A stretch of DNA of 64,000 nucleotides from the NCBI RefSeq assembly GCF_035594765.1, contig NW_026943819.1, positions 17,224,703 through 17,288,702 of the forward strand, in the 5' to 3' direction. Numbering within the stretch: position 1 is the stretch's first letter; every line of letters begins with the position of its first letter. The notes under the pieces were generated by a model. The model was not told the origin of the DNA, made no database searches, and was given only the letters and a program-made list of their open reading frames with translations. This stretch comes from Anolis carolinensis. Lineage: Eukaryota. This document shows, in pieces, positions 51,550-64,000 of this stretch. The translations under genes were made by a program, and so were the position numbers.

Positions 51550-53874
51550 TGTTTATATGTGGTGGCAGGTATCACAAAATGTAGCGCATGCAAGCCAAAA
51601 AGTTGGACAACCCCTAGTTTAGACACTGTTGATTGCAGATAGTGTGATTAATAGTGAAAGTAATGTTTCTAAATGTTTTAAAATGTTTTAAATTCTATTT
51701 TAATATGTTTATTTTAATTGTACATTGTTTTGAGGCATCTAGTAGTTGCCTATATGCAAAGCCACCTTGAGTCCCCTTCGGGGTTAAAAAGGCAGGGTTT
51801 AAATATAAAAATAAATAATACATACATAGCACAAATAGATTATCAGTGTTTACTACATTGTATTCATGTTCAATGACGAGCTGCTTTGAGGTTCAAATTG
51901 GTGCAATAATATTTGCACAGGTGTAATTGCTTCCAGATTTGCAAAGAGTGCACCAAAGAGTGCAACTGTAGGCACTGGTATCATCAAGCATGTATGCATC
52001 ATGTTAATAGTTGACTGATTGTTTTCTTAAAATATTATTGTGAAGATGAAGTAGCGTAATTCCTACTACTCTACCCAGGAAAATAAACTCACAAAAAGAT
52101 TGAGTGAATTGGTGCTACCCCTTTAATAAAACAACATAGTCAGATGTGCCGTGGTGGAAAGTAGCTACATCTGTCGCCTTGAGACTTCGCCTTGAAGTAT
52201 TGAGAGGTGTCATCTGGGGCCATCTCAGCCGAGTCTCAAAACCGTAGGCACTCTGACAGAGAAACCTATTAGAAGGCACAACCATCATTAATATCCCAAT
52301 GACATTTTGGCAGATAGCATGGAGAAGGTGAATAAATCTTTCATAACAAGGGCTACTCTAGCAAAAACATCCAATGATATTACAATCCCTATGTGTTCAG
52401 CTGATACATTCCAAGACCTCCCTTGGGCACCTGATACTATGCTGAACCCTATTTTATACTATAGTTGGGCTGGATAAGGGACTTCTACTAGATATCCAAT
52501 AGCAGTTGAGAACAAGATAATAGAGCTTTTGTCCAAAGTTTAAAGACGTTCATAAGGCTAGTTTGGATAGCTTCTTTAAAATTCAAACTAAAGTGCAGAG
52601 TAGATTCACCACTCCTGTTGTGACTGCGCCTTCGGGGACTATGGATGATGGTGGTGGAATTAGAAGAGGAAGGAAAAACCCTCGCGAGGAGGGCTCATTG
52701 GAGGAGTTGCGCAGGAAACGGATTAGAGAGCTCAATGGGGAATCTTCTGAGGAAGTTTCAGATGGGGAGTTTGGGGAAGAAATGGATGCTGGTGAACAGG
52801 TGGTGGCTGAGGAAGTGGGCACTGAATGGGCACAGCCACCGGAGATGTCTGGGGAATTGGGGCCTATGGATACTACTGAACCTGGGGTATCTTCAGGAGC
52901 AGATCCCACTTGGGCTGCTTGGAGAAGGGAGGATGGTTCTTTAAGTGTGCATGGGGTTGAGTGTGGGCAGGATGATTGGAACTCCGACGAGCAATTAGGC
53001 ACGCCTGATCCACGAGCTCTAGCTGTGTGGAGTTCTGATTCTGAGTAAGATCTGGGACACCTGTTGTTTGGGTGTGAGTGTTTGGACACCCAAGAGGAAG
53101 GGGAATAAATTGGGAATGTTTGGTCACTTCACTTTGCGTGTGGCAAGGTGTTGCTGAAGCGCCATTGGGATTTCTGTTCGTTCAAGAAGACTGGACTGGG
53201 ACTTTGCTTCTGATCTGCTGTTACCATCGTTGCCTTGGCTCTTTGTGCCATTTTGTGGACCTGGTTTTGATGACTGCACCCTTTTGGACCCTGGACTGTA
53301 ACTCGACCTTGCTTCTGCCTTCGCCCTTTGATGGATGACTACTCCGGTTGGCTTGCTAAAACATACTTTTGATATATATTTTTGTTTGAACTGCTTTTTA
53401 AACACTGATAGTTAAGTGTTTAAAGCTATCTTCTGTGTTTATGTTTACTTTTTGGCCTATCTCCTGAATAAACTCTGTTTTGTTTGTTAATTGGCATCTG
53501 ACTCTTGACAACTCCACTGACATTAAACTGTTTCCTTCAGGTAGAACAATATTAGTATTTCAGACTGAATAATCCAGTTGCATGAACTAGTAGACTGGAT
53601 CGGAGAAAGTGAACACACAATTATGGATCACTACCACATTTTCCCAAGATCTGTGGGACAATAGGAAGAGGGCTTGGAAATCTTAATACAGTAGAGGAGA
53701 AACAATATTAGCTTCATATTCATACCAATGCTCATTGGAAGCCATTGCAGAAACTCTGCTCATCACAGCAGAATGTAGCTATTACGTGATAACCAAGACC
53801 GAATGAAACTGATGAATCTGTGCATTCAGAAAGTGACTCGGTGCATCCGGTCCTCTGAAAATTATCCCCGTCTT
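51550..53874. repeat. Segmental duplication copy A (3' flank and last exon of gene 8)
   Basis: Colinear similarity to ~61940-64000 (e.g. 52073-52615 vs ~63112-63693; 53511-53820 vs 63689-64000), interrupted by the LTR at 52616-53510. Confidence 0.85.
52616..53510 (+). mobile_element. Solo LTR (Gypsy-like), 895 bp
   Basis: TG...CA, TSD ACTCC (52611-52615, 53511-53515); empty site present in the paralog at 63689-63693. Confidence 0.9.
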
Positions 53875-56800
53875 CTGTAGTGTGATGACTCATGGGCCAT
53901 GTAGTCCTGTTCCTAGCGCTGTTGTGACAGATGAAGAGGAAAACTTAGGTTTCCCACCGTTTCAGCCAGAATTGGAGCTTTCACAGCCAGAGATGGAGCC
54001 CCTGCACCTGCAGGAGATTTGCCTCCCAGAAGTTTCCCAAACAAGCCCTGAGCCGAAATCTCCCCCTTTTTCTCGCCGTGATTATTGTCAACAACAAAGG
54101 GGAGCTCAACAGGCTAATCGCAGAAGCCTGAGAATCGCGGCCAAACAAATGGTTGATTAAACCTGCTTCCCATGGGAATCTTTAGGGAGTCATGCATCTG
54201 GACTCAGAGAATGGCTTTCGGTTCTGGTTCCCCAGAGAATTGTTCTCTGGCGGGAAAACGAGACCCTACTTAGGTGTTTTGCCCTCGTAGGAATCTTGCG
54301 GAGTCAATTCGTCAACTACGGGAGTAGGTTGTGTGTGGACTACGCTCCCGTTTCCAGCCTTGCTTTGCTTCCCAGGACCTTGTTTTGCTTCACGGACCCA
54401 GCCTTGCCTTCCGGACCTCGCCACGAATTTATCACGGATCCTGTTTTTGCTCCTTGTTCTTTGTTGCCTTGAATTAAGCCTTGTATCCAAGAATCAAGTT
54501 ATTTCCTTGCCTTGCCTAAGTTTCATGGACTAAAGGACCTTGTCATCTCCCCTCACTTTGCTTGGCAAAGTGAGTGTTTCGGTTACTGGATTACAACTTT
54601 GGACCTTAATATTTCATATTGGACATTGTTTCCCTGGACTAATTTTGACCTTTCCTGAAAGGTCTACTTCTGAACTATTTCCTACACTTGCTTTTATTAA
54701 CTTTATATATTTCCTCAATAAAGATATTAGATAGATTCTGGCCTCTGTGTATGGTTATTGGTGCTCTGCAGCCTGGGTCGTGACATGTAGAAAAGGAGGA
54801 AAAGAAACATGTTAGTATAGCTGCATCTCTTATTAATGTCTGCCCTGAAATCCCATTTTACACCCATACTTTGAAAACAGGGTCCTTCCCTATTTTCATG
54901 AACTCAGTGTTCACAAATCATTTAGAGCAATGGTAGAAGTTAAAACAAAATTTGGCAAGGATGGGCAATAATCCAGAATTCTGGATCAATCTAATATGTC
55001 TTGGGTTGAAATGGTAACTACCATGAATTTAATACTCAGGACATACAATGAAGATCATGAAAAGGCATTAGTACTACATAACTTCAGAATATTAATAACA
55101 TGGCACAACTATACAGACAATAAGACATGTTAATAATGTCATAGAATCATAGTGTTGGGAGAGACCACATGGGCCATCTAGTCCAACTCCCTACCATGCA
55201 GGAAAAGCACAATCAAAGTACCCCTGAGAGATGGCCATCCGCCCTCTATTTAAAAAGCCTCCAAGCATGGAGGTTCCACCACACTCTGAGGCAGAGAGTT
55301 TCATTGCTGAACAGCTCTTACTGTCAGGAAGTTCTTCTTAATGTTCAGGTGGAATCTCCTTTCCTGTAATTTGAACCCATTGCTCCGAATCTTAGTCATA
55401 AAAACTTTAAATATGATCAGTACTGGGCCCAGAACCAAATCCTGTAGCACTCTACTGGTCGCTTTTTCCAGGATGAAGAGGGACCACTGGTGAGCACCTT
55501 TTGGGTTTGGTCACATTACATATCCACCTGATAGTAGCATTGGCTATCCTATATTTGACAAATTCATTTGCAAGAAGGTCATGGGGAACCTTGTCAAAGG
55601 CCTTGCTGAAATCAAGATATTCTACATTCACAGCATTGCCTGCATCTACCAAGCTTGTAACTCTATCGAAAAAAGATATTAGTCCGGCATGACTTGTTCT
55701 TGAGAAATCCATGTTGACTTTTAGTAACTGTTTTGTCATGCTAAGAGTTAATATGTAACTGCACCATCAAGTCCCCAAAGTCACTTGGAATTTAACATAC
55801 TTGGGTTAATAGTCACAGACAGGCATTTTTGTCCTGGTGCAGCTATACAAGCTGACTTTTCTGTCAGACACTTAGCTGTGACGGGATCAAATCTTTTGCA
55901 GACCAAGCAGCGAAGCTGACTCGGAGCTGGAAAGGGAAAGAGCATAATGCAGAAAGTATTAGATTTAAAACCAAATATGATCTGGCATTTCCACTTTTTT
56001 TAATCAGAGGTTCTCTGTCTTTGAAATTTTCACATGGATATGACATATTACCTTTAGTATCAGAAAAAGCACAGCTCTCTCTGAGTGCCGTCTAGACATT
56101 TATATGAATCTGTTAACAACAATATGTACTGTTTATAGTAGACTCTGCAGAAAATGCTTCAGCTGTACTCCATAAAAAAGGAAAATGAGCCTGTTTTGCA
56201 AGTCTTGCAAATGCTGATTTTTTTTATCAGTAAATGTTTTATTTGTTATCTATTTTATATATTTTGTATCTAAGGCATCAGACTTTAGAAACCACTTTTC
56301 CTGGGGTTGTTTGCACTCAACACCCTTTCACTGAAGCTGAGTGAAGGCACCTTTTTAAAACACTTATTTCAGAGCATGAAGCATGAAGGAGTATTAGCCA
56401 TTTTTAAAAAAAGATATAAATTACCTCCTTGGTTCTAAAGATTATGGAGGAAGAAAGGATTCTATGCCTTCCATCTCAGCTTCTCCCCCTTAATTACGTC
56501 ATCGTTTATTTACAAATAGGCAAAGGAGGAGTCTCATCATATGTTAAACTAGCTGTGCCCGGCCATGCGTTGCTGTGGCGAAGAATGGTGGTATGGGAAA
56601 TAAAGTATTGAGGAATTGGTGGTAGTTAAGGTCAAGGGTAAAGGTTTCCCCTGACGTTAAGTCCAGTCATGTCTGATTCTGGGGGTTGGTGCTCATCTCC
56701 ATTTCTAAGCCGAAGAGCCGGCGTTGTCTGTAGACTCTTCCAAGGTCATGTGGCATGACTGCATGGAGCGGCGTTACCTTCCCGCCGGAGCAGTACCTAT

Positions 56801-61939: not shown

Positions 61940-64000
61940 TATATGTGGTGGCACAATATTATCACAAAAATAATGCATGGACTTCTTTCCTGCCCATGAG
62001 CTACCATCCGTGTTGGTGTATTTTATGTGTGGCCAAAGATAATTCTTCTTCCGATGTGGCCCATGAAAGCCAAAAAGTTGGACACCCCCTGGTTTAGACA
62101 TTTTTTATAAATATATTGGATTTACTACATTGAATTCATGTTTATTGATGAGCTGCTTTGAGTGCCACCGTACGGCTGCATCTGGCTCCTGGTAGCTGTT
62201 CCGAGGGTTTTGGCATCTCTAATCTGTCCTTTCCATGGAGGAAAACAAAGGGCAGAAATGTTTCTCCTGGAAGGAGCCACAAGCATCAATCTACCTTTTG
62301 AACAGGTTACAAGGCCTCTCTGCATTGCTCAAAATCAAAGGAGGACAATTTCTGGCACCTTAAGTTGATTTCTTGCTACTTTGTGTTTGTTTACTACTTC
62401 AGCCCTCAAACCCGCCACAGTGCTCTAGAAATAGGTTCAAATTGGTGAGATAGTATTTGCACAAGTGAAATTGCTCCCAGGTTTGGAATGAGTGCAACAC
62501 AACTGGAAGCACTGTTGCCATCAAACATGCATGCATCGTGCTATTAGTTGACTGATTGTTTTCTTAAAATGTTATTGTGAAGATGAAGCTGCTGAATTCG
62601 TAATTCTAAAATGTTAAAGAAAGTGTGATGAAATAATGATTCTTGAGAAGATCAGGCATATCATACCTAGGCTCCTCCTTCTTATGTTTATTTCTACCCC
62701 TCTTTTCTCTCCAGAAAGGAGACTGAAAGTGGCTAATAAAGTCATCTAAGAAACTCATGCAGACTATATTCCTTAAAATAGGGTTTCTGACTATTAATCA
62801 CAAGAATCTGAGAAACGTTGTGCACCATCTACACATCTATTTTCATAAGGTTTAGGCAACTCATTGCAGCTTGGTAGCTGGTCGCAGATCTGATTTGTCA
62901 TAGTATTTGTTGATAACCTTATGAATTGCTGATGGGCATCTTGTGGCGTTTGGTATGTGCTGAGATTCAAAGAATTCAGTTTCCTCACAAACATTTCAAA
63001 CAACCATTCTAAAAATTATGTCCAGATTTAAAATCAAAATCACGAAATTTCAATGATGTTTAGGTCAGAGGGTTTTTAATATTTCATTTGGATCTCACTG
63101 TCAATATACTGTACCCAGGAAAATAAACTCACAAAAAGATTGAGTGAATTGTTGCCACCTCTTTATTGAAACAACATAGTCAGATGTGCAGTGGTGGAAA
63201 GAATGGTGGTAGCTACATCTGTAGCCTTGAGACTTCGCCTTGAAGTATTGAGAGGTGTCATCCGGGGCCATCTCAGCTGAGCCTCAAAACTCCAGGCACT
63301 CTGACGGAGCAACCTATTAGAAGGCACAACCATCTTCAATATCCCAATAACATTTTGGCAGTTAGCATGGAGAAGGCGAATAAATCATTTATACCAAGAG
63401 ATACTGTAGCAAAAAAAGTTGTTGTTTTTTTTAAAAAAAAAAAAGCATCCAAGGATAGTACAATCCCTATGCGTTCAGTTCATACATTCCAAGACCTCCC
63501 TTAGGCACCTGATACTATGGTGAACCTTATTTTATGCTATCGTTGGGCTAGATAAGGGACTTATCCCAATAACAGTTGAGAAAAAAGGTAAAGATGTTTA
63601 AAGATGTTCATAAGTCAATGAGCCTACTTTTTAGGAGTCAGTAATTTGGATAACTTCTTTAAAATTCGAAGTGCAGAGTAGATTCACTACTCCACTGACA
63701 GCAAACTGTTTCCCTCAGGTAGAACAATATTAGTATTTCAGACTGAATAATCCAGTTGCATGAACTGGTAGGCTGGACAGGAGAAAGTGAATACACAATC
63801 ATGGATCACTACCACCTTTCCCCAAGGTGTGGGTGACAATGGGAAAAGGGCTTGGAAATCTTAATACAGTAGGGGAGAAACAATATTAACTTCATATTCA
63901 TACCAGTGCTCATCGGATGCCATTGCATAAACTCCGCTCATCGCAGCAGAATCTAGCTACTATGTGATAAGGAAGACCGAATTTAGTTAAAAATTCACTT
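61940..64000. repeat. Segmental duplication copy B (3' flank and last exon of gene 9)
   Basis: Paralogous to 51550-53874. Holds the empty LTR site (ACTCC 63689-63693) and has extra blocks at ~62162-62430 and ~62605-63110. Confidence 0.85.
63910..64000 (-). CDS. Gene 9 (partial): 3' part of last exon of a PATE-like paralog of gene 8; continues beyond window
   Basis: ...SEFLTKFGLPYHIVARFCCDERSLCNGIR*. Aligns codon-for-codon with the gene 8 last exon, and the downstream flank is ~90% identical by eye. Confidence 0.85.
   Translation of the reverse strand, partial: SEFLTKFGLPYHIVARFCCDERSLCNGIR

Follow-up and report, generated by a model that had tools for sequence, protein, structure and literature searches.

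A polymorphic solo LTR inserted in the splice acceptor of a three-finger gene of the green anole

Precise integration of a retrotransposon in a splice acceptor has been described for an L1 in RB1 in familial retinoblastoma, where, according to a passage of PMC4859970, the target duplication lies between the polypyrimidine tract and the ag and the transcript is mis-spliced. Insertions within 20 bp of an acceptor are depleted and very likely harmful, as stated in an excerpt of PMC3088655, which also covers insertionally polymorphic LTR elements beside exons of mouse Trpc6 and Kcnh6. For Anolis carolinensis, part of PMC7561263 gives 78,472 polymorphic LTR-element insertions with a mean frequency of 0.10-0.17, many of them private; Gypsy/BEL insertions are described there as low in frequency and in many cases private, with listed lengths that include 859-969 bp. 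Tandem Ly6/uPAR (LU) clusters, with pseudogenes and birth-and-death turnover in the LY6/3FTX cluster, are described in portions of PMC10421932 and PMC4839075.

The locus studied here, gene 8 of a green anole three-finger (LU) cluster, resembles the RB1 case in its retrotransposon in an acceptor, its target duplication between tract and ag, and its predicted aberrant splicing. The RB1 element is a full-length L1 in sense orientation with a 14-bp duplication and demonstrated mis-splicing, whereas the element in gene 8 is a solo LTR in antisense orientation, the duplication measures 5 bp and takes in the A of the AG, and the effect is predicted. The mouse elements are likewise polymorphic LTR elements next to an exon, but they are full-length and none in the polymorphic list of the excerpt lies within 20 bp of an exon, in contrast to a solo LTR inside the acceptor itself, in a lizard. 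The insertion reveals no new mechanism. It provides a natural before-and-after pair: one allele has the strongest acceptor of the cluster, and the other has that acceptor interrupted by a young LTR but is otherwise unchanged. The pair is a simple test case for the choice between a first AG and cryptic sites inside the element, and it illustrates concretely the raw material for birth-and-death in a reptile three-finger cluster. A search of open-licence papers found none on the gene 8 locus.

Gene 8 and its cluster

The window (the whole stretch of 64,000 nucleotides analysed) contains a tandem array of at least nine small LU genes, gene 8 among them on the minus strand. Matching of cysteine patterns recovered 8 first-half exons and 9 last exons. 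The tails after the final CN are 3-17 residues long in all matched last exons, 3 in gene 8, so no cluster member has a tail of GPI length. In this the window is like the PATE cluster, SLURP and the reptile LY6 cluster, which consist of tandem small single-LU genes without a GPI tail; the likeness of gene 8 to them is one of features, with no close protein relative found.

Gene 8 bears the LU signature of 10 cysteines (5 + 5) across two exons and a CC...CN end (Table 1). The first-half exon matched Pfam UPAR_LY6 with E = 0.008 and 17 bits, under the curated cut-off of 24.8. In the Atlas, the leading clusters for the gene 8 protein were all LU clusters, yet scored under 0.9, and the toxin cluster, at 0.76, came below PATE2 and SLURP1. 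Protein searches with single exons found no relative of gene 8, and the sole phmmer match (P0001) was rejected as a repetitive non-LU protein. The gene 8 product is likely a small secreted LU protein, and nothing in its sequence appears to point to a three-finger toxin of the snake type. Extra small exons between the leader and the LU exon, where a microexon is predicted here, are known from PATE genes.

Table 1 Coordinates of gene 8, the solo LTR in its acceptor and the second LTR-like element
Feature	Position	Strand	Remarks
Exon 1, coding part	60292-60241	minus	hydrophobic 17-codon leader, likely signal peptide as judged by eye; GT donor; phase 1
Predicted 12-nt microexon	59649-59638	minus	phase 1-1; predicted on the basis of frame and splice signals (tract, AG, GTGAGT donor)
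Exon with first half of LU domain	55926-55801	minus	5 Cys; GT donor; phase 1; weak Pfam UPAR_LY6 match
Branch point TACTAAC	54817-54811	minus	branch A = 54812; present in empty-site loose ends of runs X1 and X10
Native polypyrimidine tract	54810-54791	minus	now upstream of the LTR
Target-site duplication, upstream copy CTACA	54790-54786	minus	intron positions -6 to -2
Solo LTR, TG...CA (905 bp)	53881-54785	+ (antisense to gene 8)	ends, 5-bp duplication, empty site; polymorphic
First AG inside the LTR (bases 12-13)	54774-54773	minus	exon from 54772 with 32 LTR-derived codons; stop 54677-54675
AATAAA inside the LTR	54698-54693	minus	candidate premature poly(A) signal
Cryptic acceptor in the LTR	54129-54128	minus	score 3.5; exon would start at 54127 and reach a stop after 4 codons
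Cryptic acceptor in the LTR, own tract	53920-53919	minus	score 3.3; exon would start at 53918, out of frame, and reach a stop after 9 codons
Downstream CTACA copy (53880-53876) and G (53875), stranded original CTACAG acceptor	53880-53875	minus	score -5.4
Last coding exon, second LU half	53874-53732	minus	intact frame; 5 Cys, CC-x5-CN and a tail of 3 residues
Second solo-LTR-like element (895 bp)	52616-53510	+ (antisense to gene 8)	5-bp duplication; in gene 8 3' UTR
ATTAAA, likely native poly(A) signal	52127-52122	minus	paralog has AATAAA at matching place

The insertion and its empty site

Read to the base, the LTR is inserted between the branch point and tract of the final intron and the AG of the last exon. 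The first-pass annotation had noted the LTR in the acceptor, the TACTAAC at 54817-54811, the tract, the CTACA duplication, the 905-bp separation and the AG at 54774-54773, and every coordinate it gave was confirmed exactly. The duplicated 5-bp target includes the A of the AG, whose completing G is 53875; the upstream copy thus retains the branch point and tract and has lost the G, and the downstream copy retains the CAG and has lost the tract. Before insertion, 27 nt separated the branch A from the AG. The TACTAAC motif occurs six times in 128 kb (both strands of the window), and its retention in the longer loose ends of runs X1 and X10 supports it as a real branch point.

Six stretches in the window begin with TGT, end with ACA and combine a 5-bp flanking repeat with 7/10 terminal inverted matches; the acceptor LTR, itself at 7/10, is among them, and the search for an empty site, directed at this one, was successful. 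It carries a plus-strand AATAAA at 54717, 63 nt from its 3' end, and both of its flanks are host DNA (intron and exon) rather than internal domain. Summed contig depth was 1,000-800,000 over the element vs 0-42 on the unique flanks, indicating a multi-copy family, although depth does not equal copy number. Pfam searches with four LTR frames, three of them from this LTR, gave 0 families, and the LTR end pattern had 0 matches in metagenome and viral contigs. We infer that a full LTR retrotransposon integrated in the last bases of the final intron of gene 8, and that LTR-LTR recombination then left the 905-bp solo LTR.

Four public sequencing runs (X1, X6, X10 and X12), from four studies, were compared over 53492-53899; their evidence consists of contigs, which attest presence and not absence, and the figures are those of the records listed. 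In run X12, a contig covers 53564-53880 with 3 differences in 317 and continues with 9 letters equal to 54791-54799. The same 9 letters follow a contig of run X6 over 53698-53880 (0 differences in 183, depth only 3.5), and a contig of run X10 over 53721-53880 (0 differences in 160, depth 70) extends 9 letters further; these 9 letters past the junction fall short of the 31-letter bridging rule. The pooled loose-end consensus of X10 equals 54791-54820 at 28/30 positions. The empty site is thus present in three of the four runs, in contigs 99-100% identical to the exon, none of which enters the LTR, and depth at 53884-53899 is 0 in X12, X6 and X10. Run X1 gave an empty piece of 55 letters with 4 differences, perhaps from a paralog, the rest of the exon being uncovered; two X1 contigs that touch 53880-53899 were rejected as a filled junction, since they have no exon flank and represent other LTR copies.

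The filled junction was seen in 0 of the 4 runs among the records listed; the window is the one source of the filled allele. As a control, junction contigs into the second LTR were assembled in X12, X6 and X10, so junctions of this kind are detectable in these three runs. The lack of a run with the filled junction would fit an assembly error in the window; the TG...CA ends and the 5-bp repeat of the empty-site sequence, both exact, are marks of an integrase and not of a mis-join, and private LTR insertions are common in such genomes according to part of PMC7561263, which makes such an error extremely improbable.

The insertion is polymorphic, and the intact acceptor is carried by other animals; four runs are too few for an allele frequency. 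The first-pass annotation had called the insertion recent, which agrees with this polymorphism and with the identity of the empty-haplotype exon stretches to the window (0/183 and 0/160 differences). Its phrase "gene death caught in progress" goes too far for a segregating allele whose intact site is found in 3/4 runs and whose filled junction is found in 0/4. A fixed pseudogene has its lesion on all chromosomes; the intact site is present in X12, X6 and X10, and with an intact haplotype in existence this is an ordinary damaged variant, not a gene lost by the species.

The insertion would be of little consequence if gene 8 were already silent or dispensable on the filled haplotype, owing perhaps to the older LTR in its 3' UTR. 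Consistent with this, the filled junction of that second, 895-bp element is present in 3/4 runs, and the window holds several related LU genes, with further close paralogs in the runs. Against it, no frame is broken in the four gene 8 exons, and their donors and acceptors are canonical except for the split acceptor; the last exon, already noted as intact in the first reading, is open for 46 codons to the stop at 53734-53732; the one exon-2 variant checked (55883) is synonymous; and the poly(A) hexamer survives at 52127. We regard this explanation as unlikely.

Predicted splicing of the filled allele

Acceptors were scored with a model built from the 15 other LU acceptors in the window, a model distinct from MaxEntScan and SpliceAI in which the branch point is not scored. 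Under leave-one-out, the 15 cluster acceptors scored 3.0-13.1. The empty-site acceptor scored 13.7, above all 15 and above all 8101 AGs in the window. Among the 143 intron AGs of the filled allele, the best were 54127 (3.5), 55190 (3.3), 53918 (3.3) and 54772 (1.1); 55190 lies outside the LTR and is hence on both alleles. The low score of 54772, under every native site, arises because the tract ends 14 nt before its AG. Counted from the native branch point, 39 nt away, this acceptor supplies the first AG; it retains a pyrimidine run of 19 nt, and its AG-free zone extends over 46 nt. The branch point favours it yet is absent from the model, so its score ignores that advantage. The first-pass annotation had also drawn attention to this new AG 12-13 nt into the LTR. 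It is present and unsurprising: because the gene strand of the LTR has 77 AGs in 905 nt, one within 15 nt is expected by chance (~0.7).

The old site at 53874 might still be spliced efficiently, with the LTR removed along with the intron. Neither its CAG nor its exon is damaged, a weak acceptor can be sustained by last-exon definition and exonic enhancers, and the LTR-borne acceptors are weak too, at or below the bottom of the native score range. Yet 26% of the 8101 AGs across the window match or beat the -5.4 of this site, the 46 nt that precede it contain four AGs, its AG-free zone is 12 nt, and it has no branch-point motif within 50 nt. It was earlier described as having no pyrimidine tract, which is borne out by T content (only 4 in -22..-5 vs 10-13 in other cluster acceptors) but needs softening, as the site is not purine-rich, with pyrimidines at 9/16 positions vs 11-15 in the 15 other cluster acceptors. 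Efficient normal splicing appears decidedly unlikely to us.

On these model scores, the LTR likely cripples the gene 8 acceptor on the filled allele. The earlier suggestion of a knock-out is backed to this extent, as acceptor damage predicted by a small scoring model; the choice it had posed between 53874 and 54772 is too narrow, since 54127 and 53918 both score above 54772 and the antisense AATAAA at 54698 could end the transcript. All three LTR-borne acceptors truncate the protein. From 54785 to 53874, the only AGs in frame with the last exon are 53943 and 53874 itself, and any plausible new acceptor would therefore cost the protein its last five cysteines; in-frame rescue through 53943 (+23 residues) was rejected on its score of -18.6.

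We therefore favour, as the probable though far from certain outcome, a redirection of splicing into the LTR that gives a truncated, likely non-functional protein from the filled allele, while other alleles carry the intact site. The native branch point and tract would remain the best signal of the intron, and the spliceosome would use the first AG downstream, 54774-54773, for the main product. First-AG scanning by the spliceosome is described in part of PMC1431707, and new AGs may also lead to retention, skipping or use of other cryptic sites, as set out in an excerpt of PMC9284458. Our own estimate of the product shares would be ~45% for 54772, ~25% for 54127/53918, ~20% for intron retention and ~10% for the old site. 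In the 54772 product, 32 LTR-derived residues would replace the last five cysteines; without a downstream exon junction, the transcript should escape junction-dependent decay, and it may end at the antisense AATAAA of the LTR or continue to 52127. Given the disulfide pattern of LU domains, loss of the last five cysteines should prevent folding, and a three-finger core without the C-terminal CC...CN would not be expected to form. Close paralogs and intact alleles may keep the cost low, so that the allele would drift at low frequency; the usual fate of such a segregating allele is loss. The insertion is thus young, segregating and probably damaging; its kind is well known, it lies in a redundant gene cluster, and the genome is noted for such polymorphisms.

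The LTR could instead serve as a working last exon (54772 to ~54670), its product being a half-LU protein that is secreted, stable and extended by 32 new residues. The signals for this do follow in the right order: native branch point, tract, first AG, an open run of 32 codons in which 2 Cys occur, and an AATAAA. The stop of this run lies only 16-18 nt past the hexamer, where cleavage would fall, with no clear GU/U-rich element downstream of the AATAAA; the product would have 7 cysteines and no CC...CN; the filled allele is found in no run, and an open stretch of this length is not rare by chance. A working last exon of this kind is very improbable. The broader idea that the antisense strand of the LTR supplies a last exon ready for use (AG at 12-13 nt, 32 codons, AATAAA at 88 nt), from which carriers make a chimeric secreted protein of half a three-finger domain and an LTR tail, seems to us quite unlikely. 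Were it true, a domain swap would be segregating here, with its ancestral and derived forms open to comparison in living heterozygotes, and the same trap could be set by any other copy of the family that is inserted behind a tract.

Runs X17, X18, X19 and X12 (X17 and X18 being one sample) cover the introns of the gene and are thus DNA-like; among the 15 joints listed for them, none is an exon-exon joint or the empty site of the LTR. None of the listed runs matching 55700-56200 is recorded as RNA, a result with no bearing on expression.

The second LTR and paralogous copies

Filled and empty junctions of the second LTR both occur in X12, X6 and X10, with depths in X10 of 86 for the filled and 145 for the shared sequence. 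Judging from these depths, its empty form may derive from a close paralog, and the element may be older than the acceptor LTR or fixed. A reading of the two LTRs as the ends of one element was rejected, since they do not align and each has its own duplication.

The 3' end of a ninth LU gene lies at 63050-64000 on the minus strand; it is ~89% identical to gene 8 in the 3' UTR and lacks the second LTR, and its acceptor falls outside the window. A paralog-like contig in X12 and X6 departs from the last exon at 53755, where 27 letters match intron positions 54986-54960 on the opposite strand (25/27, by eye). This copy appears to have been disrupted by an inversion spanning the same acceptor. A loose end of X10 at 53807 represents a further diverged last-exon paralog, so the LU subfamily extends beyond the window.

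Both LTRs open with an acidic frame that has no Pfam match, at 53837-54160 (+) and 52524-53048 (+); measured from stop to stop, the two frames span 107 and 174 codons. A stretch at 31234-31380 matches the 3' end of the acceptor LTR at 71% and represents an older remnant of a related family.
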